32,311 nt of DNA. Origin: a virus. Taxonomy: Duplodnaviria > Heunggongvirae > Uroviricota > Caudoviricetes. Below, piece by piece: positions 929 to 25,312 of this stretch. The number at the start of each line of letters is the position of its first letter. The first letter of the stretch is position 1. Location: IMG/VR virus record IMGVR_UViG_3300009193_000001; one strand, given 5' to 3'. The position numbers and the translations under genes are program-made. Under the pieces are notes generated by a model. The model was not told where the DNA came from and did not search any database. It saw only the letters and a list, made by a program, of their open reading frames with translations.

Positions 929-1517
929 ATCGTTTCCTTAATGCTTCGGCAATTTTAGGTTCTTGTGTCATGGCCAAATGAATAGCATGTTCGTGTTTTT
1001 TTCTCTTCCATGCTGTATGTGCATCTAATGGATTATCGTATGCACCCAAATACTCTGTGCGTCTAGTTGTTGGGTTTCTACATCTTGAGGTGTATTTACC
1101 TTTATCTATAGTAACACCCATAGGTAATATTGATGCTCTACTGGAACCACCATCAGTCAGGAATAAATTTATATGTCGTTCTAAGAAAACGCAATTATCT
1201 GGGCTATATATTTTATTATCTAATACTAATATATCTTTATCTAATTCTTTATCTTGCCATTTTTGCAAAACCATCCAGCTTCTAAAATTAGAAAAATATT
1301 TCCATTCTTCACATACACCACAGCCAATATATGATGGTTTAGCTTTATGGTATGTGACCGAATAACATCGTTCAATCATACTAACCCACTTAATATAAAA
1401 TGGGCATTTCCATAGACTTTTAAATTTTCTAGTGTTTCCAACTTTGGGTAGTTCTTCTCTTATGTGTGTGACGTAATCTGCATCATTTATACCGAAGCCA
1501 CAAACTAATTTAGACAT
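921..1517 (-). CDS. HNH-type homing endonuclease with AP2-like C-terminus
   Basis: 198 aa; GFGINDADY, WVSMIERCY, VCEEWKYFSNF, LDKDIL..IYSPDNCVF, and YLGAYDNPLDAHTAW; GGAGG RBS; paralog of three other ORFs in the window. Confidence 0.8.
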   Translation of the reverse strand: MSKLVCGFGINDADYVTHIREELPKVGNTRKFKSLWKCPFYIKWVSMIERCYSVTYHKAKPSYIGCGVCEEWKYFSNFRSWMVLQKWQDKELDKDILVLDNKIYSPDNCVFLERHINLFLTDGGSSRASILPMGVTIDKGKYTSRCRNPTTRRTEYLGAYDNPLDAHTAWKRKKHEHAIHLAMTQEPKIAEALRKRYV

Positions 1518-3743: not shown

Positions 3744-4286
3744 TTAGGTGAATCTCTTTATTAGCGCAGAAGAAATTATATCACATGTTTCATGTTTCGC
3801 CAACATGTACGCATATTCTTTCTTTTTATTTGCCCATGATGCATGGGCGGCATTTGCGTCATCGAATGTGCCTAAATGCACTCTATTTTTTGTTATTGGT
3901 TCTCGTATACTTGACTGGAATTTTTTACCTTTTTTCAATACGCCAACAGGTAGATTATATTTATCTGTTGGTATAATTTGTATAAAATTATTTATTTGGC
4001 TAGTTATAAACACACAAGTATTCGGTCCATATATATTATTACCAATAACCAACAAATCTTTATCTAGTTGTTTACCAATATAATCTTGGGTTATCATCCA
4101 ATTTCTAAAATTCGAAAATAATTTCCAGTCATCGCACACCTCACAATCTAAATATGTTGGGTGCATTTTATGGTACAATACAGAATAACACCTACACATC
4201 ATAGATTTCCATCTGTTATAAAATGGACATCCTCTAGTCTTGTAATCTGCGTCGTTTATTCCGACACCGTACATCATTCTAGCCAT
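3744..4286 (-). CDS. HNH-type homing endonuclease with AP2-like C-terminus
   Basis: Start moved to the ATG at 4286 behind GGAGG; GVGINDADY, WKSMMCRCY, VCDDWKLFSNF, LDKDLL, HLGTFDDANAAHASW. Confidence 0.8.
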   Translation of the reverse strand: MARMMYGVGINDADYKTRGCPFYNRWKSMMCRCYSVLYHKMHPTYLDCEVCDDWKLFSNFRNWMITQDYIGKQLDKDLLVIGNNIYGPNTCVFITSQINNFIQIIPTDKYNLPVGVLKKGKKFQSSIREPITKNRVHLGTFDDANAAHASWANKKKEYAYMLAKHETCDIISSALIKRFT

Positions 4287-5644: not shown

Positions 5645-8032
5645 ATGAATCAATTTACACAGAGAGATTTCGAAGAATATACATCACAGTTGGGTACAGA
5701 AAAGATTATGTGTGCGGCAGACGATGCATCGAAAGATTTTGAGTCGAACCACTTAAAGAAAATCGTCAAAGAAATGATTGAGCCATTCGGTGATTACATC
5801 AACGAGAGAGCGAAATTAGAAGAGAAAAATTACACTAAGGGTCCGAAGCCATTAATATTAAAATTATTAAAATCTGACGCTCTGGTGAACTCTCGTAAGA
5901 ACGATAAGACTATCACTCCGTTACAGTTGAGCTTTATCACGACTAAAATAGTAATATCGTCGATTCGATGTAATGATGAGAACACCAAAGAGACCTATAC
6001 CGCAAGCAAAATTGGTAAAGAAATCAATTTGAATTTGTGTCATGAATTTAGATTATCTGAAGGTGAAGTAGTCAAGTATGGTGCGTTCATGGTGCGTTAT
6101 TTTGCTGAAGCATTTCCACAATATGTTAGCGTGGATATGAGCTATGAAGATAGAAAATCTAAGTGGCAAGAGAAGCAACTAATACCGACCCAATTGTACC
6201 TCGATACGGTAGCAAACAACATTGAAACTTTAGCTGAATTATCTATCGTAACTTTTCCTATGGTTGAGAAGCCGATGGACTGGACAACCGATGGTAGCGA
6301 TGGTGGTTATTACACAGAAATTTATAAACGTAACATCATTAAAAAGCGTCAGGTTGGCGAAGATGCTGGTATCAATACTAATATTTCTAGTGCCGTTAAT
6401 TTAATCCAAAGCACACCATGGGAATTGAACTTGGATATTATTCATATCGTTGATGATTTGAATAAAACTAAGCCAGAAAGTTTAAAGAAAGTTTTCCCGT
6501 TGGTTGTGGAAAAAACACCAGCTAAACCGTTCCCTGATGTTTTGTATCCTGACATGGATGAAGACCAACTCAAAATTCATCGTCAATGGTCATCTCTTGA
6601 GAAGAAACTCAAGAAGGATAGACAGGCTAAGATATCTGTCGATTTGGCGCGAGAGGGTGCATTAAGACAGGCTAAGTTCTTCATACATGATACTAAATTT
6701 CATAAAGGTAAACTATGGTTTCCACATGATTTAGATTACCGTATCAGAACATATAACAAGTCGATGACCGGACTAAACACCCAAGGTGCAGACTTCCAAA
6801 AAGGTATGATTAAGTTTGCGAATAAGCATGCAGTAACTACCGATAATGGAATCAAATGGCTCAAGATAAATATGGCCAACTTGATTGGTTTCGATAAACT
6901 AAACTTAGCTGAGCGTATACAGAAATGTAATGAGCATGAAGGGTTAATTCGTGAAGTTGTTAAGAACCCGTACAAGTGCACTGAATGGCATAAGTGGGAT
7001 AAACCAGTACAAGGTTTAGCTGCAGCGATTGAGTACGTTAAATGGCTCGATAACGACCAAGCATTGCTACAAACCCATGTACAATTAGATGGATTATGTA
7101 ACGGTGTGCAAAATTTGGCAGCGTTAACTCGTGACCATTTAGTTGCGCCACATGTTGGTTTAATCTGGACACCAGAACGTGGTGATGTTTATGGTTATGT
7201 AAATAACTCAGTGATTGACCGTATAACGCCTCTAGGATGTCGTATGAGCGACGAATGGCTACGTTCCGAGCTAATGACTCGCGGACTAACTAAAACGCCA
7301 GTAATGACTCGCTCATACGGTGCAACGATATATGGCATCAAAGATGGTTGTAAAGAATATATCGAAGACCAAGGTAAGGCCGCACATTTTGAAGATTTGT
7401 TTAAGGCTGGTAATTGGATGGGGGAACGTATATGGGAATCGATGGAAGGTAGCTTAGCCGGACCTATGTCATTCATGGAGTGGGCGCAGAAATGTGCTGG
7501 TATATTGGCCAAAGCTAATTTACCTTTACCGTGGACTAATCCAGCGTTGGCTAAGTGTTTACAATCACCATTCGAGACTAAACGTAAAGAAATTAAAGTC
7601 AAGATTAATGGCCAAGCACAATCTTATTATATCATGAAGCATACTAATAAGATTGCTCGTGCAAAATCAGAATCGAGTAGTTCACCAAACATGATTCATT
7701 CGTGTGATGGTAGCCATTTGATTGGCACAACTAATAGATGTGAAGTTAAAGGCATTCGTGATTTTGCGATGGTACATGATAGCTTCGGTACTATACCGGA
7801 CCACGCTGAAGGGCTATTAGATAGCACTAAAGATGCATGGGTAGACCAGTACAGTGAAGATTGGATTTTACGTTGGTATCATGAATGGGTAGACTTTGCG
7901 ATTTCTAAAGGTAAGCCTGAAGTAGCTGCAGCAATACCACACCCATATAAAGAAGACGATGACGGTAAATTTGTTATCGTTGGTACACTTGATATTGAAG
8001 CTGTAAGAAAATCTGATTTTTTCTTTGCATAA
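5645..8032 (+). CDS. T7/T3-type single-subunit DNA-dependent RNA polymerase
   Basis: 795 aa; DLDYRIRTY, motif A QLDGLCNGVQ, motif B RGLTKTPVMTRSYG, PNMIHSCDGSHL, motif C VHDSFGT, C-terminal DFFFA. Confidence 0.96.
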   Translation: MNQFTQRDFEEYTSQLGTEKIMCAADDASKDFESNHLKKIVKEMIEPFGDYINERAKLEEKNYTKGPKPLILKLLKSDALVNSRKNDKTITPLQLSFITTKIVISSIRCNDENTKETYTASKIGKEINLNLCHEFRLSEGEVVKYGAFMVRYFAEAFPQYVSVDMSYEDRKSKWQEKQLIPTQLYLDTVANNIETLAELSIVTFPMVEKPMDWTTDGSDGGYYTEIYKRNIIKKRQVGEDAGINTNISSAVNLIQSTPWELNLDIIHIVDDLNKTKPESLKKVFPLVVEKTPAKPFPDVLYPDMDEDQLKIHRQWSSLEKKLKKDRQAKISVDLAREGALRQAKFFIHDTKFHKGKLWFPHDLDYRIRTYNKSMTGLNTQGADFQKGMIKFANKHAVTTDNGIKWLKINMANLIGFDKLNLAERIQKCNEHEGLIREVVKNPYKCTEWHKWDKPVQGLAAAIEYVKWLDNDQALLQTHVQLDGLCNGVQNLAALTRDHLVAPHVGLIWTPERGDVYGYVNNSVIDRITPLGCRMSDEWLRSELMTRGLTKTPVMTRSYGATIYGIKDGCKEYIEDQGKAAHFEDLFKAGNWMGERIWESMEGSLAGPMSFMEWAQKCAGILAKANLPLPWTNPALAKCLQSPFETKRKEIKVKINGQAQSYYIMKHTNKIARAKSESSSSPNMIHSCDGSHLIGTTNRCEVKGIRDFAMVHDSFGTIPDHAEGLLDSTKDAWVDQYSEDWILRWYHEWVDFAISKGKPEVAAAIPHPYKEDDDGKFVIVGTLDIEAVRKSDFFFA

Positions 8033-8036
8033 AGTG

Positions 8037-8072
8037 TTGACATCATATTGGTGCCATGTATAATGGCTCCAA
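8037..8072 (+). promoter_or_regulatory. Sigma70 promoter with stem-loop over -10 (PeSL-like)
   Basis: TTGACA-16-TATAAT; arms TTGGTGCCAT/ATGGCTCCAA. Confidence 0.8.
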
Positions 8073-8093
8073 GATAAACAAACGGAGAAAGTT

Positions 8094-8399
8094 ATGTATT
8101 CATCAAACACACAATTCACTAAAGAAGTTGGTATGGTTTTAGTTGAGCAGTACGAATATATCGAGTCAGAAGGACCACCATGGGGTTCGGTTGAGTATAC
8201 GTTTAAAGATTTCACAAAAAACGATTTGACAGAGTTTGTAGAACGATATAAACTTATCGAAATCAAGTCGGGATTGTGTTGTGATTATGCTTACGCAATA
8301 AATGAACTACACTGCATCAAGGGCGATGAGGTTGCATCATACGACGAAGATGCACAAACATTAACAATTTTTGGTTGGTCTATACAGGGGATAAAATAA
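8094..8399 (+). CDS. Hypothetical protein
   Basis: 101 aa, GGAG RBS, directly after a promoter. Confidence 0.75.
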   Translation: MYSSNTQFTKEVGMVLVEQYEYIESEGPPWGSVEYTFKDFTKNDLTEFVERYKLIEIKSGLCCDYAYAINELHCIKGDEVASYDEDAQTLTIFGWSIQGIK

Positions 8400-8966: not shown

Positions 8967-8987
8967 GAAATAAAACAAAATAAGTAG

Positions 8988-9026
8988 TTGACATCATCTT
9001 GGGGTCATGTATAATGGCTCCAAGAT
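8988..9026 (+). promoter_or_regulatory. Sigma70 promoter with stem-loop over -10 (PeSL-like)
   Basis: TTGACA-16-TATAAT; 13-bp arms 8996-9008/9014-9026 with two G-T pairs; near copy of the 8037 cassette. Confidence 0.8.
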
Positions 9027-9044
9027 AAACAAACAGAGAAAATT

Positions 9045-9233
9045 ATGAAATTACATGACCAAGTATTACACTTAAAGAAAATGGTAGCCGAGCAAGAAGA
9101 CCAGAATAATGAGCTTCGTCGGTACTTAAACTCAAGTAAGTTTCATATCGATAAAACTGTGCAAGTATCAGATTTGTTCTTGCGTTTAGATGAAGGTAAG
9201 CGTACAATGGACGCATTAGCGGAGCATTTATAA
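9045..9233 (+). CDS. Hypothetical protein
   Basis: 62 aa after a promoter and RBS. Confidence 0.7.
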   Translation: MKLHDQVLHLKKMVAEQEDQNNELRRYLNSSKFHIDKTVQVSDLFLRLDEGKRTMDALAEHL

Positions 9234-9610
9234 TGTTTACAATTAAAGGCGCACACAAAGATATAATCGACCGTATATTATTCCATAAAAAAGACCGAGT
9301 TTTTGGTTTGCGTGAGGTTACATTGGAATTGGCGAACTCAAGTAAAGAAGACATTATCGCAGCACTAACCGCTACGAACAATTTTAAATTTGAAACATAT
9401 AGTGGTGATTGTAATGACAGTATCGACGTCGACCTTGTAACTTATAGGGAAATGACCGATAAAGAGAAGTCAGAAAAGGACGAAACGATAGAACGATGTC
9501 TTCGTTATAATATGCGAAAATTGCAAGAAGCTTGCGACCGAACTACCGAGAATAACGAGCAAATAAAATCATATATTTCTAGACATAATCTAGATATTGT
9601 ATTAAACTAG
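9233..9610 (+). CDS. Hypothetical protein
   Basis: 125 aa, TAATG coupling, GGAG RBS. Confidence 0.75.
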   Translation: MFTIKGAHKDIIDRILFHKKDRVFGLREVTLELANSSKEDIIAALTATNNFKFETYSGDCNDSIDVDLVTYREMTDKEKSEKDETIERCLRYNMRKLQEACDRTTENNEQIKSYISRHNLDIVLN

Positions 9611-9624
9611 CGGAGAAAAAAATA

Positions 9625-9861
9625 ATGGCAATAACTATATCACCATACCAAGTAATAAAGCTCGATGGCGTCACAATAAATGATGTAAAATACTGCGACG
9701 AGCTTGAACGTCATTATGTTGAACATCGTGGCACTAATTATATAGTAGATGAATATACTTTACCACAAACCGACGCGTTTACATTTACTGTGGTGTTGGT
9801 GGAAAATCCAAAATGTGATTTTTCTGGTGTTGGCGTAGTTCGGAGTATAAAATGTTATTAA
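9625..9861 (+). CDS. Hypothetical protein
   Basis: 78 aa, GGAG RBS. Confidence 0.7.
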   Translation: MAITISPYQVIKLDGVTINDVKYCDELERHYVEHRGTNYIVDEYTLPQTDAFTFTVVLVENPKCDFSGVGVVRSIKCY

Positions 9862-9921
9862 GACACCATATAATATCCAAATTACATCTTAAATTTGGTA
9901 TATACATCAAGCCAGAGTTTA

Positions 9922-9930
9922 TGCTATAAT
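9922..9930 (+). promoter_or_regulatory. Extended -10 promoter
   Basis: TG-C-TATAAT exact extended -10 consensus; no clear -35. Confidence 0.6.
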
Positions 9931-9936
9931 TCACAC

Positions 9937-10297
9937 ACTCGATGTTTGTTGGTGAATCTAGAAGTTTTAGAACTGGACTGCATAAGATTACAATAACTAG
10001 GTCTGAGATATGGCCGATGCATTATACGATAACCTAAAAGGTTGTTCGTTCAAATCATATTCAAAGAGTATGATTTGAACGGGCTATCTAACTAATAGCT
10101 AGTCGGGTAGTGCCGATGATGGGAAGTGGGCTTGTTACCCACAAAACACTAGGTTGTCCTAACCGTGATAGGAACATGACGAGGCATGAAGTGTATGGCT
10201 GGAGCGAAACCAGAAATGGTGGTTTACTGTGAAGCATATGTGATATTGATATGTGGAGTATCGGGGGAGCTGGGAAGCGGTGCTCACAACCTCCCAA
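9937..10297 (+). ncRNA. Putative ~360-nt structured RNA with its own promoter
   Basis: No long ORF; 13-bp perfect hairpin 10047-10059/10069-10081 extended by G-U pairs on the plus strand, plus GTGGG/CCCAC, TCCTA/TAGGA, CTGG/CCAG, CATAT/ATATG and GGGAG/CTCCC stems. Confidence 0.55.
9942..10037 (+). CDS. 31-aa near-leaderless ORF resembling the UvsX Walker A segment
   Basis: MFVGESRSFRTGLHKITITRSEIWPMHYTIT versus UvsX MLAGESRSFKTGF; no RBS, so translation is unproven. Confidence 0.4.
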   Translation: MFVGESRSFRTGLHKITITRSEIWPMHYTIT

Positions 10298-10304
10298 ATA
10301 ATTC

Positions 10305-10342
10305 TTGACAGAGTTATTTGGTTAGTTTAGAATTAACCAAAT
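10305..10342 (+). promoter_or_regulatory. Sigma70 promoter with stem-loop over -10 (PeSL-like)
   Basis: TTGACA-17-TAGAAT; perfect arms ATTTGGTTA/TAACCAAAT. Confidence 0.8.
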
Positions 10343-10384
10343 CGCTTTGATTTAAACAACTTAACTATATTATTGGAGAAAAAT

Positions 10385-10756
10385 ATGAACTTATTATCAT
10401 TGATTACTTTAGGCTTATTCGGCAACAAAAAACGTAGCATCAGCGACATCGTAGAAACTTTCACTACGGTCCGTACAGAACTACAAAGTGCAGTGGAAGA
10501 AGCTCAAGAAGCTATCGATACGGCAGCGTTAGATAAAGCCAAAGCAGACGCAGTAGCGGAAGAAGCAATCAAAACCGCAGAAGCTCGTGCATTTGCACTT
10601 ATCGCTAAAGCTAAAGCCGACGCGAAAGTTAGCCAAGGTAAAGCATTAGAAAAACAAGCCAAAGTAATTGAATCTGGTATTACCGAAATTAAGTCGGCCA
10701 AATCATCGATTAAATTAGCCAACCAATGGCTAGAAAAAATTCCATCTATCGACTAA
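10385..10756 (+). CDS. Hypothetical Ala/Lys/Glu-rich coiled-coil protein
   Basis: Start moved to the ATG at 10385 behind GGAG; 123 aa, helical composition. Confidence 0.75.
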   Translation: MNLLSLITLGLFGNKKRSISDIVETFTTVRTELQSAVEEAQEAIDTAALDKAKADAVAEEAIKTAEARAFALIAKAKADAKVSQGKALEKQAKVIESGITEIKSAKSSIKLANQWLEKIPSID

Positions 10757-10782
10757 TAACGAAAACCAAATAATAATTAAAT

Positions 10783-10798
10783 GGACTCTTCGGAGTCC
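10783..10798 (+). terminator. C(UUCG)G tetraloop hairpin; weak terminator or stabilising hairpin
   Basis: GGACTC-TTCG-GAGTCC followed by only TTACT. Confidence 0.5.
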
Positions 10799-10813
10799 TT
10801 ACTGGAGATAAAA

Positions 10814-11467
10814 ATGGCAAGACCACCAAATAAAGACATGTTGGCTGGCAATAAGCACCAATCAACATTTGGTTGGTTTATTATTATAAAATATTCAACA
10901 AGTAAAAATATAGAAATTTTGTTCGACGGTTCGGATAAAACAATGATTACAACCAATGAAAGAATTCGAAGTGGTAATCTAAAGAACCCATCACACAAGT
11001 CAGTGTATGGTGTCGGGTATTTTGGATATGGAGAACATCGAGCAAAAATAGGAAACAGAGATACCAAGGTATATAAAGTTTGGCATGGTATGTTCCAAAG
11101 ATGTTACTCTGATGGATATAAAAATACGTCATATGATGGGTGTATCGTATGTCCAGAATGGCACAATTTCCAGACATTTGCTGTTTGGTTCCATGATAAT
11201 TATATAGCGGGATTCGAATTAGATAAAGATTCAATTGTTGTCGGAAATAAGATTTACTCACCAACAACATGTAAATTTTTAAGTAAAATGGATAATGCGG
11301 CTTTACAATCAGCGTGCAAATACACAGTCCAAATGACTAACGGTATCGAGAGTGTTACATTCACAAACCAAAGAAAATTCTGTATAGAACATAACCTTTG
11401 CCACAAGGCTATAAACGCAGTTATTAAAGGGCGAACAAAACAACATAAACAATGGAGATTATTATAA
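10814..11467 (+). CDS. HNH-type homing endonuclease with NUMOD1-like C-terminus
   Basis: Start moved to 10814 (GGAG RBS); VYGVGY, WHGMFQRCY, VCPEWHNFQTF, LDKD..IYSPTTC; TAATG-coupled to uvsX. Confidence 0.8.
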   Translation: MARPPNKDMLAGNKHQSTFGWFIIIKYSTSKNIEILFDGSDKTMITTNERIRSGNLKNPSHKSVYGVGYFGYGEHRAKIGNRDTKVYKVWHGMFQRCYSDGYKNTSYDGCIVCPEWHNFQTFAVWFHDNYIAGFELDKDSIVVGNKIYSPTTCKFLSKMDNAALQSACKYTVQMTNGIESVTFTNQRKFCIEHNLCHKAINAVIKGRTKQHKQWRLL

Positions 11468-12465
11468 TGGCAAGCGCATTAATGAAAAGAATGATGAAAA
11501 ATAGCACAGTTAATGGTACAGATATATTGGGTGAGTCTAAATATTTTAAACGAAGCTCGATAATGACTTCTATACCTTTACTAAATGTTGCGTTTTCTGG
11601 GGATTTTAATGGTGGTTTAAGCGCAGGTATAACTATGCTCGCTGGCGAGTCACGAAGCTTCAAGACTGGGTTTTTAATTCAATTAGCACTAGCGTTCCAA
11701 ACTAAACATAAAGATGGAATTGTATTGTTTTATGATAGTGAATATAGCTCACTAGAATATTGGATTTCCGCTGGCATCGATATGAATCGAGTATTGCATG
11801 TTCCAATAGAAACAGTCGAAGAACTCAAAATCGACATCACCCAACAACTAAACGACATAGAAGAATCTGAGCATGTTATGGTTGTTATCGATTCCATTGG
11901 TGGATTGGCTAGCGCAAAAGAAGCTCAAGACGCAGAAGATGGTAAGTCTACAGTGGATATGTCTAGAGCCAAGGCAATGGCTAGTTTGTTCCGTATTATT
12001 ACCCCTAAGCTAAACAAGCGAGATATACCATTAGTACTCATCAATTCATTCTACGAAACGATTGAGATGTACAGTAAGCGAGTTTATGGTGGTGGTAAGA
12101 AGATATTCTTAGCTTCCGATGACGTATGGTTTATTTCTAGAGCACAAGACAAAGAAGGTAAAGATTTGGTTGGTTACAACTTCACCCTAAATATCGATAA
12201 GTCTCGTACCATCAAAGAAGGTAGCAAATTCCCAATAAATGTCACATGGGTCGATGGTATAGATAAATACTCAGGTTTATATGAATTGGCCAAAGAATTT
12301 GGTGCTCTTCAGGTTGCTGGTGCGTGGGTTAAAGTTATGGACTTATCGACAGGTGAACTGTCGGGCAACAAACGTGCAGCAGCCATCGGTAGTGAATTTT
12401 ATGATGAGTTATTAAAGCACCAACCGTTCGTAGATTTCGTCAAAAATAAATATTGTTTAAACTAG
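11467..12465 (+). CDS. uvsX: T4 UvsX-like RecA-family recombinase
   Basis: AGESRSFKT P-loop, LFYDSE, IDSIGGLAS, DMSRAK, LFRIITP, KSRTIKEGSKF, as in T4 UvsX; start moved to 11467. Confidence 0.95.
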   Translation: MASALMKRMMKNSTVNGTDILGESKYFKRSSIMTSIPLLNVAFSGDFNGGLSAGITMLAGESRSFKTGFLIQLALAFQTKHKDGIVLFYDSEYSSLEYWISAGIDMNRVLHVPIETVEELKIDITQQLNDIEESEHVMVVIDSIGGLASAKEAQDAEDGKSTVDMSRAKAMASLFRIITPKLNKRDIPLVLINSFYETIEMYSKRVYGGGKKIFLASDDVWFISRAQDKEGKDLVGYNFTLNIDKSRTIKEGSKFPINVTWVDGIDKYSGLYELAKEFGALQVAGAWVKVMDLSTGELSGNKRAAAIGSEFYDELLKHQPFVDFVKNKYCLN

Positions 12466-12474
12466 GAGAAAATT

Positions 12475-12843
12475 ATGTCAAGTATGTATACTAAAATATA
12501 TGTAATTATGATTGCAGCGTTCATTACTTTTGTATTATCAATCAAAGCGATTGTGTCTGTATCTACGTTAGATAGCGTAACTATAACACCAACTAGAGTA
12601 TTCGAAAAATTTAGTGGTGGTGAGGATGGCTCCACAACTTATATGATGGACGCCAAAACACCTTATGGTGAATATGTTGAATATAAATTGGATGACAATA
12701 TTATATTCTTACACTTCGACTCCGGTAGACTAAAGAACCAATTACATGATAATATAGGTAACGAAATTACATGCCGAACTACTGGTTGGCGAGTCCCTTT
12801 CTTGTCGATGTATGAAAATATACATAAATGTGAATTTAATTAA
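12475..12843 (+). CDS. Membrane-anchored hypothetical protein, possibly DUF1523-like
   Basis: Hydrophobic N-terminus; C-terminal GWRVPFLSMYENI. Confidence 0.6.
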   Translation: MSSMYTKIYVIMIAAFITFVLSIKAIVSVSTLDSVTITPTRVFEKFSGGEDGSTTYMMDAKTPYGEYVEYKLDDNIIFLHFDSGRLKNQLHDNIGNEITCRTTGWRVPFLSMYENIHKCEFN

Positions 12844-12852
12844 ATCCTTTAG

Positions 12853-12888
12853 TTGACTTTACACTGGAACCTAGTAAAATAGGTTCCA
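12853..12888 (+). promoter_or_regulatory. Sigma70 promoter with stem-loop over -10 (PeSL-like)
   Basis: TTGACT-16-TAAAAT; perfect arms TGGAACCTA/TAGGTTCCA. Confidence 0.8.
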
Positions 12889-12917
12889 ACATAAAGTTAA
12901 TCAGACGGAGCAACCAC

Positions 12918-13763
12918 ATGAAAGGTTTCATTGAAGTAAGTTATAACGAATTATTATATACATCGGCTATGGTAGATACTAAAGTATTTTCTGGTGGTGA
13001 AGTTAATATAAAAGTCCCAAATAGTAAAATCCCATATGTAACTAGCGCAAATATTGTTGCGACAATCCATGATACAGAAATGCTAATGGCGTTATTACAA
13101 ACAGTCGACGCATTACGCATCAAATATAACAAGCTGGAAAAAATTGAGCTTATTATGCCTTATGCACCATACGCAAGACAGGACCGTGTTTGCAATGATG
13201 GTGAGAGTTTATCTTGTAAAGTGTTCGCCAACTTAATCAATAGTTGTGATTTTAATAGAGTGTCTATAGTAGACGCACACAGCGACGTTCTACCAGCACT
13301 AATCAACAACTGCACTAATCTGGACGTATTATCGGTTATTAATCGAATAGAGCCACTTAGACGAAGCCTACAGGCTAAAGAATATGTTATTTGTGCACCA
13401 GACTTCGGTTCTACCAAGAAAGTAGAAAAGGTAGCCAAAGCATTCAAGCATGAAACAATCATCCAAGGTACAAAGAAACGTGACTTAGCCACTGGTGAGT
13501 TATCCGGTTTTGGTGCATATGGCGATTGTACGGGTAAAGACATCTTAATCATAGATGACATATGTGATGGTGGTGGAACTTTCGTTGGTTTGGCGAAAGT
13601 ACTCAAGACACTTGGCGCTAAATCTGTATCACTTTATATCAGCCATGGAATTTTTTCTCGTGGAATCGATAACTTAGTTGACAACGGTATTGACCATGTG
13701 TATACTACAAACTCAAACGAACAAGCAACACACGATAAATTAACCACATTAGCAATCATATAA
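12918..13763 (+). CDS. prs: Ribose-phosphate pyrophosphokinase-like protein (candidate NARP1 Adps)
   Basis: FSGGE, MPYAPYARQDR, DAHS, APDFG, IIDDICDGGGT, SHGIFS. Confidence 0.92.
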   Translation: MKGFIEVSYNELLYTSAMVDTKVFSGGEVNIKVPNSKIPYVTSANIVATIHDTEMLMALLQTVDALRIKYNKLEKIELIMPYAPYARQDRVCNDGESLSCKVFANLINSCDFNRVSIVDAHSDVLPALINNCTNLDVLSVINRIEPLRRSLQAKEYVICAPDFGSTKKVEKVAKAFKHETIIQGTKKRDLATGELSGFGAYGDCTGKDILIIDDICDGGGTFVGLAKVLKTLGAKSVSLYISHGIFSRGIDNLVDNGIDHVYTTNSNEQATHDKLTTLAII

Positions 13764-15371: not shown

Positions 15372-15379
15372 ATTGATAG

Positions 15380-15415
15380 TTGACTTTACACTGGGACTCT
15401 ATATAATGAGTCCCA
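15380..15415 (+). promoter_or_regulatory. Sigma70 promoter with stem-loop over -10 (PeSL-like)
   Basis: TTGACT-16-TATAAT; arms TGGGACTC/GAGTCCCA; 15376-15437 is identical to 25245-25306. Confidence 0.85.
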
Positions 15416-15444
15416 ACATAAAGATAACTTACTGGAGCAATCAC

Positions 15445-16481
<1,037 letters not shown>

Positions 16482-21189: not shown

Positions 21190-21192
21190 TTG

Positions 21193-21228
21193 TTGCATTT
21201 ACACTGGAACCTAGTAAATTAGGTTCCA
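21193..21228 (+). promoter_or_regulatory. Degenerate sigma70 promoter with stem-loop over -10 (PeSL-like)
   Basis: TTGCAT-16-TAAATT; same TGGAACCTA/TAGGTTCCA arms as at 12865. Confidence 0.65.
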
Positions 21229-21254
21229 AAATAAATTTAACAATGGAGAAAAAT

Positions 21255-22657: not shown

Positions 22658-24409
22658 ATGACAACAGACAACCAAATATTGCAAATCATCGAATTGAAGA
22701 AAAATGGAATGAATCATCGCCAAATTTCTAAAGAAGTATTCGGTAAATCTTCGTCGGCATCCACTGTACATAGTGTGCTCAATAAACATTTTTACAACCA
22801 GAAAGAGCAGGTTAATAAAATGAAGCAGCAAGCAGTACAAGTTGCCGACGAGCTTAATGAAATAATTAGGTTGTCCAAGGAAGGCTTAACTAATGCAGAG
22901 ATATCCGAAGTCGTAGGGCGAAGTCCGACATCTATAGGTAAATTCCTTAACAGGAAAACACACGTAGAATTCTGGGAGTCTTACGACGAAAAGCCGATAT
23001 CAGGTGGAACTAAAATATCACCTACCGACCGTAAAAAGTTGGTAGGTAAACGTTTTGTCTTCACTTCTGCGCAAAACAATACCAACATACATAAGGAATT
23101 CTTTGAAGCATTAAAATTATTTTGTGCAGATAAAGGTGCCGAACTTATCGTTGGTACATTCAATTATAATAAAACCGGATTCCAAAATGGCCCGAGCGAG
23201 GATACATGGTTTGACCCAGCAATCAGGAACTACATATTAAACGAATCCAGAACGATATCAAACGATATGGTGTGGTGTGGTGAGCTTAGCATACTACCAA
23301 CCGCAGCAAATCCGGTATCTGGCTTCCATAGCTATACACAAAGTTCTGGTGGTATAATTCCACATGTTAAGGTACAACTAGAACCATTACCCAGAGCAAA
23401 CGGTAAATGTGTTAGACAATTATTTACGACAGGTGCAATCACGCAACAAAACTACGTACCACAAAAAGCCGGACAACAAGCTGGCTTTCATCATGTTTTT
23501 GGTGCAACATATGTAGAAGTTGATGATGATGGTCATTCTTTCGTTAGACAATTGATAGCAGAATCGGAAACGGGTTGCTTTTATGATTTGGATAAATATT
23601 ACACACCGAAAGCAATAACCAACGGGCATGCCATAGAAGCAATCAACTATGGTGATGTGCATGGTAGTAAGGTTGATGAGGTTGTGGCTGAAATTAGTTG
23701 GGGCGATAATAAACATTCTATATTAAATACTTTGAAGCCAAAGCACCAATTCCTTCATGATGTATTTGATATGAGTTATCGCAACCACCACAACATCAAA
23801 GACCCTTATTTCATGTATAAGATGCATGTTAATGGTACAGAGTCGGTTAAGAGCGAAGTGACTAATACAGCCGCGCTAATGGCTAGTATGATTAGACCAT
23901 TTTCTAAATTGGTGGTGGTAGAAAGTAACCATGACTTGGCACTGGAAAAATGGCTAAAAGAACAAGATTATCGTTACGACCCAGTGAATGCATTATTCTT
24001 CTTGGAGATGCAAACAGTCACATATCAGCACATGGCAAGAAATGAAGAGTTCCATATATTTGAGCATGCATGTCGTTTGGTTAACCCTAAACTACACCAA
24101 GCACAATTTTTAAGAACTGATGAAAGTTTTGTTATATGTGGTGACATTGAGTGTGGTGCTCATGGTCATAACGGCAATAACGGTGCTCGTGGTTCAATTC
24201 GGGCTTTCCAAATGTTAGGTACAAGATACAACACTGGCCATACGCATTCTGCGGCTATTAAGGATGGTGTTTATATTGCTGGCGTTAGTGGTAAGCTTCA
24301 GATGGGTTACAATAAAGGTGGTAGCTCTTGGAGCCAATCACATATATTAACCTACCCGAATGGCAAGAGAACTATAATTACAATAAAAAATGGAAAATGG
24401 CACGCTTAA
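22658..24409 (+). CDS. A1: T5 A1-like protein: tandem N-terminal HTH plus calcineurin-like metallophosphoesterase/nuclease
   Basis: RFVFTSAQNNT, YNKTGFQNG, YGDVH, QFLHDVFD, RNHHN, ESNHDLAL, HGHNGNNGARG, NTGHTH, SSWSQSHILTYPNGKRT, all as recalled for T5 A1. Confidence 0.85.
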   Translation: MTTDNQILQIIELKKNGMNHRQISKEVFGKSSSASTVHSVLNKHFYNQKEQVNKMKQQAVQVADELNEIIRLSKEGLTNAEISEVVGRSPTSIGKFLNRKTHVEFWESYDEKPISGGTKISPTDRKKLVGKRFVFTSAQNNTNIHKEFFEALKLFCADKGAELIVGTFNYNKTGFQNGPSEDTWFDPAIRNYILNESRTISNDMVWCGELSILPTAANPVSGFHSYTQSSGGIIPHVKVQLEPLPRANGKCVRQLFTTGAITQQNYVPQKAGQQAGFHHVFGATYVEVDDDGHSFVRQLIAESETGCFYDLDKYYTPKAITNGHAIEAINYGDVHGSKVDEVVAEISWGDNKHSILNTLKPKHQFLHDVFDMSYRNHHNIKDPYFMYKMHVNGTESVKSEVTNTAALMASMIRPFSKLVVVESNHDLALEKWLKEQDYRYDPVNALFFLEMQTVTYQHMARNEEFHIFEHACRLVNPKLHQAQFLRTDESFVICGDIECGAHGHNGNNGARGSIRAFQMLGTRYNTGHTHSAAIKDGVYIAGVSGKLQMGYNKGGSSWSQSHILTYPNGKRTIITIKNGKWHA

Positions 24410-24412
24410 GTG

Positions 24413-24452
24413 TTGACACTATATCTGGGGTATGTATAATGTACCCCAGATA
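24413..24452 (+). promoter_or_regulatory. Sigma70 promoter with stem-loop over -10 (PeSL-like)
   Basis: TTGACA-16-TATAAT; perfect 11-bp arms TATCTGGGGTA/TACCCCAGATA. Confidence 0.85.
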
Positions 24453-24473
24453 AACAAACAACTGGAGAAAATA

Positions 24474-24722
24474 ATGGTAGTAGATTCAGAAAAAGATGTA
24501 GTAATATTTGGTAAAGATAATTGCCCACACTGTGTAACTGCACAGAAATTATGTGTTGCAAATGACTTAACGTTCGAGTACAATAAGCTCGGTGAAGATT
24601 ATGGCGACGATAAGTTGGCTGAATTAGTAAATGGCACTGGCCAAAGAACATTCCCGTTTGTGTTCTCGCATAAATTTATCGGTGGCGCACAAGAATTAAA
24701 TAAACATATTAGAGGGATATAA
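24474..24722 (+). CDS. nrdC: Glutaredoxin (NrdC-like)
   Basis: CPHC active site, RTFPFVF, FIGGAQEL; start moved to 24474. Confidence 0.9.
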   Translation: MVVDSEKDVVIFGKDNCPHCVTAQKLCVANDLTFEYNKLGEDYGDDKLAELVNGTGQRTFPFVFSHKFIGGAQELNKHIRGI

Positions 24723-24723
24723 A

Positions 24724-25248
24724 ATGGCATTAACTAAACACGAAAAAATCGAATGGGAAAAGCGCGTTCGACAAGGCGTATTCTGGCAAGTTGGTGTAGA
24801 AATCCGCACAGAACGTCGTGGCACATATATCAATATTCTGCGACACTTTGATGGTAACTTGAAGGGTGTACCTAAAATTACTCGCGGTTTGTGGGGTAAA
24901 GCTCAATTCGCTAAGGGCCAAGTCATTGATGAGTTTGTCAAGTCTGAGTTTGATGCTGGTTGTATGTTGCGTGATGCACCGGAGCATATCATCGACGATA
25001 TCGTTTTTGATACTGGTCATCTACACAAGTACATCAAAGATTTATTTGTTGATGCATACTTCAAAAATAACTATGAAGAAATCGTTGCTGGTGTAAAACA
25101 TTGGACCACGATGAAAAGTCTTCTTAATTCGGTTAACCCAGTACAGGCCGCTGAAGATTTAGCCAACGAGCTAAAGAAAGAAGATGCAGATGCTGAAGTC
25201 ACCGAAGAAATGTTAGAAAAGGCGCAGGTAAAAATATTAAATAAATAG
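24724..25248 (+). CDS. Hypothetical protein
   Basis: 174 aa, GAGGG RBS. Confidence 0.75.
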   Translation: MALTKHEKIEWEKRVRQGVFWQVGVEIRTERRGTYINILRHFDGNLKGVPKITRGLWGKAQFAKGQVIDEFVKSEFDAGCMLRDAPEHIIDDIVFDTGHLHKYIKDLFVDAYFKNNYEEIVAGVKHWTTMKSLLNSVNPVQAAEDLANELKKEDADAEVTEEMLEKAQVKILNK

Positions 25249-25284
25249 TTGACTTTACACTGGGACTCTATATAATGAGTCCCA
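25249..25284 (+). promoter_or_regulatory. Sigma70 promoter with stem-loop over -10 (PeSL-like)
   Basis: Exact copy of the 15380 cassette. Confidence 0.85.
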
Positions 25285-25312
25285 ACATAAAGATAACTTA
25301 CTGGAGAATTTT

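Follow-up and report, generated by a model that had tools for sequence, protein, structure and literature searches.

The window, the whole stretch of 32,311 nucleotides analysed here, is part of a 97.8-kb phage record in IMG/VR. In the region of interest, the gene of a single-subunit RNA polymerase is followed by several small ORFs, a short segment resembling the Walker A region of the recombinase UvsX, a G+C-rich region, a 123-aa ORF, a gene for an HNH endonuclease and uvsX itself, after which come prs-like and NAMPT-like genes (Table 1). The recombinase has 1720 homologues at E <= 1e-20; UvsX homologues in metagenome assemblies are 65-85% identical to it, with 83% for those of the records L010-L012. 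A related-locus search with UvsX gave only relatives at 27% identity, and with the 123-aa family it gave none.

The block from the RNA polymerase gene to uvsX is highly mosaic among the relatives. In L009 (3448-5889) the polymerase is called as two adjacent ORFs of 391 and 417 aa instead of one of 795 aa, which could reflect a frameshift, a split gene or an intervening element. Two families of intergenic repeats, each 75-95% identical, are found in the window, the first at 8032-8096, 8982-9047 and 24407-24476 and the second at 12850-12931, 15377-15458, 21192-21240 and 25232-25306; both are probably promoter or terminator cassettes.

Table 1. Features of the region upstream of uvsX and their counterparts in other records (positions are those of the window unless a record is named).
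Feature	Position	Strand	Remarks
Small ORF, 61 codons plus stop	9852-10037	+	Family P0121/P0123/P0124/P0125/P0127; Shine-Dalgarno GGAG 9842-9845
In-frame TAA, codon 26 of the small ORF	9927-9929	+	CAA (Gln) in L025 and L010
UvsX-like segment	9942-9980	+	Codons 31-43 of the small ORF; most conserved block of the family
Long hairpin, a few nt after the stop codon of the upstream ORF	10044-10084	+	Compensatory changes; possibly a processing site
Conserved RNA core	10080-10212	+	Covariance model R1, 149 bits; G+C-rich stretch to about 10290
Terminator-like hairpin (10294-10321) overlapping near-consensus promoter-like TTGACA-17-TAGAAT (10305-10333)	10294-10333	+	Ahead of the 123-aa ORF
123-aa ORF	10385-10756	+	Family member upstream of uvsX in every close relative examined; no Pfam match
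Free-standing HNH homing endonuclease (predicted), 217 aa	10814-11467	+	phrog_2081, E 1.9e-51
uvsX, RecA-family recombinase	11467-12465	+	phrog_97, E 7e-72; Pfam RecA; Walker A segment 11635-11673
RNA copies	Window 10044-10330; L010 5524-5697; L025 756-1060; L028 1350-1470		Covariation in at least two hairpins
RNA copy L029	3507-3643	-	Unrelated phage record G001
Basic conserved 57-aa ORF (MEQNEKYIKKVRRKQRKLWF...)	L010 5351-5524; L027 2407-2580; L028 1014-1187		3' of the small ORF; missing in the window

The original prediction saw in positions 9942-9980 a synonymously recoded copy of the UvsX Walker A segment. The translations of the two stretches are MFVGESRSFRTGL (9942-9980) and MLAGESRSFKTGF (11635-11673), and the alignment figures given for them are exact: 9/13 residues and 25/39 nucleotides are identical, with 10/13, 11/13 and 4/13 identities at the first, second and third codon positions, so that most third positions indeed differ. 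Taken alone in the window, the match is at chance level (E 0.27 in a tblastn search of UvsX against the uvsX-masked window), and an unrelated match outscores it. The idea of recoding did not hold. Because uvsX orthologues with identical peptides themselves share just 26-32 of the 39 nucleotides over this stretch, the supposed recoded self copy amounts to ordinary synonymous drift.

The ATG at 9942 is an internal methionine, codon 31 of a 61-codon ORF. This ORF is preceded by GGAG at 9842-9845, six nucleotides 5' of its ATG at 9852, which overlaps the end of a 78-aa ORF (9625-9861), and homology to the relatives begins at that ATG when the window is translated in the same frame from further upstream. 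The 78-aa ORF is missing from L025 and L010, and a 79-aa version of it is present in L027/L028. In the window, the frame of the small ORF has a single interruption, the TAA at 9927-9929, which lies within a TATAAT hexamer (9925-9930). Position 9927 is T in the window and C in L025, where the hexamer reads TACAAT. The same TAA base is present in L023, an independent ENA assembly of 102.9 kb with 9 kb of identical sequence, which shows the stop to be a true allele rather than an error in the reads.

Since the new TAA completes the TATAAT, the remainder from ATG to stop looks like a leaderless ORF of 31 codons behind a promoter. This is how it had been described, as a segment with no ribosome-binding site behind an extended -10 promoter. 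There is in fact no Shine-Dalgarno sequence at ATG 9942, and the TG-extended string TATACA-18-TATAAT is present at 9901-9930, just 5' of the segment. Such promoter-like sites are, however, just as common in shuffled sequence, with 16 found in 9000-12900 against 16.1 expected. On comparison with the relatives, the apparent leaderless peptide and its promoter are what is left to see of a 61-codon gene that has been broken. The stop may have left this gene dead in the present phage; it would be either inactivated or reduced to a re-initiation product from ATG 9942. For the reading of raw sequence this is a caution, in that one nonsense change can mimic a promoter together with a leaderless peptide.

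The small ORF is intact on five further metagenomic phage contigs, which gives a family of six known members, every one metagenomic. Relatives in L010-L012 and L013/L014 were located by tblastn; L010-L012 carry a called ORF of 63 aa whose C-terminal half matches the segment peptide, and the match extends beyond that peptide. HMMER with a two-sequence profile against 1.84 billion representative proteins added four more members of 60-91 aa (P0123, P0124, P0125 and P0127). Another match, P0126, a protein of 4156 aa, was discarded as a repeat artefact. The homologous-protein search with the 63-aa ORF returned that ORF alone, tblastn with the small protein as query found nothing meaningful among 50,697 phage records, and Pfam and PDB sequence searches with the family gave nothing significant. 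Without gaps, the amino-acid sequence of the window ORF is 77% identical to the intact ORF of L025, 52% to that of L010 and 36% to that of L013. The L025 member is P0123, and its DNA is 93.5% identical to the window over 9881-10354.

The pattern of substitution is that of a coding sequence. Between the window and L010, 40/61, 43/61 and 28/61 bases agree at the first, second and third codon positions, and 15 codons differ synonymously only, including multi-step replacements such as AGG/CGT and CTG/TTA. The frame is kept without gaps across 60 codons in the six members, the window copy alone having a stop, and most pairwise dN/dS values fall within 0.2-0.5, synonymous sites being close to saturated. 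As third positions are the most variable and dN/dS lies below 1, we conclude from the alignments that the small ORF encodes a protein under purifying selection. The gene belongs to the stretch that separates uvsX from the RNA polymerase gene and is an early phage gene conserved in a clade of uncultured marine phages; its product belongs to a previously unnamed family of early phage proteins of about 60 aa.

The most conserved part of the family is the motif G-x-x-R-x-F-[RH]-T-G. G34, R37, T41 and G42 are invariant in the six members, F39 is present in 5/6, and the ATG at codon 31 is likewise kept in 5/6. An AlphaFold2 model computed from five sequences is compact (mean pLDDT 86), with helices at residues 2-14 and 20-27 and strands at 35-39, 44-48 and 56-59. 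The motif is modelled as strand-turn-strand, that is as a beta-hairpin, and no helix follows it. Searches with the model against the PDB, AFDB clusters, BFVD and the ESM Atlas, together with an Atlas feature search, gave nothing significant.

How do these results bear on the first reading that had been proposed, a translated P-loop-mimic peptide? That the segment is protein-coding stands, as codons 31-43 of a 61-codon gene and not as a leaderless peptide of 31 aa. The mimicry does not, since the position of the Walker lysine is occupied by arginine in five members and by histidine in one, never by lysine, and the motif is modelled in a beta-hairpin. A stand-alone P-loop-mimic peptide is at most a remnant of the longer protein. 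One could still suppose that the 31-codon piece made alone is the active form, produced from the internal TG-TATAAT or by re-initiation 12 nt after the TAA. The change from CAA to TAA does better the -10 hexamer relative to the TACAAT of L025, the codon-31 ATG is widely kept, and the same allele recurs in the independent long assembly. Such a product, however, would have no ribosome-binding site and would lack both predicted N-terminal helices of the compact fold, promoter-like sites are as frequent in shuffles, and the dN/dS of the window copy against its nearest relative, 0.55, the highest but one among the pairs, is as expected under relaxing constraint. We regard an active 31-codon product as improbable.

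Could the small gene nevertheless be related to uvsX? The comparison of the 6 small proteins with 26 UvsX sequences in hhalign gave a probability of 83% (E 9.4e-6) over 37 columns. Residues 31-61 of the small protein are paired with UvsX 57-101; the alignment skips the helix that follows the P-loop and resumes with a matching S-E-x-x-P-x-x-Y. In a local run of the program the real pair scored 33.4, with a probability of 68%, whereas 200 column shuffles scored 12.4 +/- 2.7, at most 21.9, and the reversed profile scored 11.0. The similarity spans only about 31 residues, with a gap of 14 residues, and the hhalign probability does not exceed 95%. The family profile was also run against all six frames of the complete 97.8-kb genome, an unbiased and not a post-hoc comparison, and the Walker A region of UvsX was the sole other match (E 0.02). 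The family residues G34, R37, T41, G42 and F39 coincide with the G, R/K, T, G and F of the UvsX motif A-G-E-S-[RK]-x-F-K-T-G, so the family motif has the unusual Phe that UvsX carries at the position of the second Walker glycine.

The same conserved small gene would be expected to look much like this if the likeness were due to chance or convergence, with a hairpin turn rich in Gly, Arg, Thr and Gly that happens to resemble the atypical P-loop of UvsX. The chance-level match within the window, the modelling of the motif as a beta-hairpin and not as a P-loop with its helix, and the catalytic lysine found in no member all fit this account, as do the silence of Pfam RecA on the small proteins and the fold searches, none of which points to RecA-like proteins. 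It accounts less well for a profile-profile E-value of 9.4e-6 and a real score far beyond that of 200 shuffles, for UvsX Walker A being the only second match genome-wide, for the blocks G-E-x-R-x-F-x-T-G, S-E and P-x-x-Y standing in the same order in both proteins, and for the position of the small gene 1.5 kb from uvsX. Chance or convergence thus seems unlikely to us, if still a serious contender. Descent of the small ORF from an old partial uvsX duplicate is, on these sequence comparisons, likely rather than proven. As the predicted fold is not RecA-like and has the motif in a hairpin, a shared origin requires refolding.

If the small gene descends from uvsX, codons 31-61 would go back to an old duplication of part of the uvsX core, comprising strand 1, the P-loop, strand 2 and then S-E-x-x-P-x-x-Y, the intervening helix having been lost. 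What was retained would be a small alpha-alpha-beta-beta-beta protein, with the former P-loop as the turn of a beta-hairpin. Such a protein would be unable to bind nucleotide in the Walker way and would most likely act by binding a partner. It is tempting to think of a refolded, uvsX-derived microprotein, devoid of the catalytic lysine, that binds and tunes the phage UvsX or the host RecA early in infection. We consider this specific role improbable, and the link of the small protein to recombinases is a conjecture. If true, it would be a phage case of a regulator built from a fragment of its own target; the descent itself, if confirmed, would show cleanly how a new small gene can arise from a fragment of an essential gene.

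The HNH protein matches, in addition to its best PHROG, four further PHROGs of HNH or restriction endonucleases and one of unknown function; in Pfam it has no match, and so no RuvC part. The gene precedes uvsX in the window and in L015, whose copy is 58% identical, and L013/L014 carry a more distant version at this position; L010 and L009, with colinear sequence on both sides, lack it here. On each side of the insertion stands a copy of a block made up of ribosome site and start, TGGAGAT...ATGGCAAG, at 10803-10821 and 11453-11474. Because of this duplication the HNH ORF and uvsX start with the same eight bases, and the block looks like the footprint of the insertion of the endonuclease gene. 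Membership in the HNH family and presence/absence polymorphism at one intergenic site mark it as an ordinary, sporadically present, predicted homing endonuclease. Two more stretches of the window, 3978-4271 (-) and 1158-1397 (-), are paralogous to the 217-aa protein at 37-45% identity, and the phage therefore carries several homing-endonuclease-like genes.

A comparison at the nucleotide level with the uvsX genes of other phages brings out one pair. Positions 9942-9976 agree with uvsX of L010 in 31/35 nucleotides, and the whole segment in 32/39, which exceeds the match to the phage's own uvsX. The expectation for such identities was obtained by redrawing codons from the phages' own usage with both peptides held fixed; for the segment and L010 uvsX it is 25.5 +/- 2.4 (p 0.004 for this pair, one of 42 compared). 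The next-best values among the 42 pairs are unremarkable, and the longest exact runs are of about 10 nt. Once the 42 pairs are allowed for, the match is explained by the shared residues and codon bias.

This comparison also bears on the proposal that the segment is a relic of an older uvsX allele left by homing. Its most direct form would be a recent, non-functional scrap of a foreign uvsX allele, introduced by homing or gene conversion. A free-standing endonuclease does adjoin uvsX, the T4 enzyme SegA, which adjoins uvsX and cuts it, is a direct precedent (PMC2988022), and the codon identity between the window small ORF and L010 uvsX is nominally high. Yet the segment is in frame and conserved even at a UvsX identity of only 65%, phages carry it whether they have the HNH gene or lack it, its dN/dS is below 1, and the nucleotide excess is lost on correction for the 42 pairs. 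A recent scrap is thus extremely improbable. What survives of the relic idea is that descent from uvsX is plausible; the copy is old, under purifying selection and found with or without the HNH gene, and it is not debris of this endonuclease.

The statement that about 300 nt of hairpins follow the segment was borne out. The region 10025-10325 has a G+C content of 41-47%, compared to about 35%, is G-skewed and folds better than shuffles (z -3.8, plus strand). Its conserved core is 93% identical to the window in L025 and 81% in L010, higher than the flanking genes. Among the window, L025, L010 and L028, 9 of 29 predicted pairs, mostly in the hairpin 10044-10084, keep pairing through two-sided changes, and a second hairpin further downstream also shows compensatory changes. 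The covariance model R1 was built from four copies, with L028 not among them, and finds the partial copy of L028 at 61 bits (E 1.7e-15), with one copy per genome. In total there are five RNA copies, with covariation in at least two hairpins. The fifth is in a 60.9-kb phage record, G001, where the RNA lies directly 3' of a tRNA with anticodon CUA; both uvsX and the small ORF are absent from G001, and the nearest 1.5 kb or so around the RNA contains no HNH-sized ORF. This tRNA (L029 3658-3754 (-), the same as L031 1652-1748 (-)) has a long variable arm and is labelled Pyl by ARAGORN; with its CUA anticodon it would be an amber suppressor and hints at TAG recoding in that phage.

A search of the whole window against Rfam at the gathering score gave no match, and a search up to E 10 of window 9800-10450 and of L010 5100-5800 gave chance-level snoRNA and miRNA rows only. 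A group I intron with a uvsX exon flank was considered and rejected: Rfam has no match to E 10, the uvsX gene is whole, and the frame before it belongs to another gene. Hammerhead-like or k-turn-like readings of the strings GAUGAUGG, CGAAAC and GUC, made by eye, were dropped for their unfit spacing. Among the DNA scans for further copies, a pattern scan of metagenome contigs gave four loci that are all chance matches in G+C-rich repeats, an exact 18-mer scan of viral contigs gave no copies, and a looser pattern found one true copy, L029, in the viral contigs and none in the genome contigs.

The claim that the UvsX-like segment forms the 5' end of this RNA was not upheld. In L010 the small ORF and the RNA are separated by a 57-aa ORF, and in L028 by both a 57-aa and a 53-aa ORF; in L027 the small ORF is followed directly by the 57-aa ORF, and the contig breaks off before an RNA is reached. 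The small ORF of L013 is not accompanied by the RNA, and the terminator- and promoter-like block of window positions 10294-10333 comes directly after it with no RNA between; L009 has neither small ORF nor RNA. Whichever ORF precedes it, the long hairpin always begins just past the stop codon, or after the tRNA in G001. This suggests that the 5' end of the mature RNA is made by processing downstream of the hairpin, in which case the uvsX-like segment would be excluded from it. By its distribution, the structured RNA is a module separate from the small gene. Since L010 has the small ORF and the RNA and no HNH gene, neither depends on the HNH, and the RNA and the HNH gene are likewise independent modules that are neighbours by happenstance. 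The RNA itself is real, conserved across unrelated phages, and deserves separate study.

The remaining proposal combined these elements into a system in which a guide-like 5' RNA segment on a scaffold directs the 217-aa HNH protein to the uvsX of competing phages, after the model of IscB and its omega RNA. It is easy to see its appeal, given that segment, RNA and HNH gene are neighbours in the window and that 9942-9976 matches the uvsX of L010 better than its own. The identity of 32/39, on the other hand, reaches its p of 0.004 in one of 42 pairs with runs of about 10 nt, and a BLASTN search of 9937-9985 against the 50,697 phage records gave chance matches in unrelated genes only and no phage uvsX. 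When the relatives were compared for a variable 5' segment on a constant scaffold, the segment proved to be conserved as codons, to vary mainly at synonymous sites as a coding sequence does, and to be separated from the RNA by the ORFs of L010 and L028. The RNA also occurs without the HNH gene in L010, and in G001 it sits behind a tRNA without uvsX, small ORF or nearby HNH-sized ORF. The guide-RNA reading is very improbable on these comparisons, and we reject it. As a natural guide RNA aiming a small HNH protein at rival recombinase genes fails, no new RNA-guided system is inferred.

In summary, the account that we favour, and hold to be probably correct, is that of a small conserved phage gene broken in this phage by one stop, whose C-terminal half would come from an old uvsX duplicate, with the structured RNA and the HNH gene as independent neighbours.

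The differences from RNA-guided nucleases are evident from a direct comparison. IscB combines RuvC and HNH in one protein of about 400-500 aa, and its guide is a 5' segment contiguous with the RNA. The window resembles an IscB locus and its omega RNA (HEARO) in that an HNH-family gene lies 3' of a structured RNA. The protein, however, has 217 aa instead of the split RuvC with HNH insert and the 400-500 aa of OMEGA nucleases, and is a homologue of homing endonucleases. No HEARO RNA was found by Rfam beside the nuclease gene; the supposed guide is a coding sequence, so that no variable guide is contiguous with a constant scaffold; and RNA and HNH gene occur without each other.

The HNH gene was also compared with the free-standing homing endonucleases of T4-like phages, namely the Mob HNH enzymes and SegA. 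As in those phages, a small nuclease gene of patchy presence lies between conserved genes, several paralogues are found per genome, and the position beside uvsX is that of T4 segA. SegA is a GIY-YIG enzyme, in contrast to the predicted HNH enzyme of the window.

The Walker A P-loop has the consensus G-x-x-x-x-G-K-[ST], with a helix after the lysine. The small proteins resemble the UvsX/RecA version in G-E-S-R-S-F-x-T-G, including the atypical Phe of UvsX for the second Gly, and depart from it by arginine or histidine for the lysine, by the modelled strand-turn-strand and by the lack of a following helix, features that do not describe a P-loop NTPase. Microproteins derived from a fragment of a larger protein are known mainly from plants and animals. 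The small protein is like them in its size of about 60 aa and in a core that resembles a piece of a larger protein encoded nearby, minus a catalytic residue. Unlike in those cases, its predicted fold differs from that of the parent UvsX, and a dominant-negative action would be conjecture.
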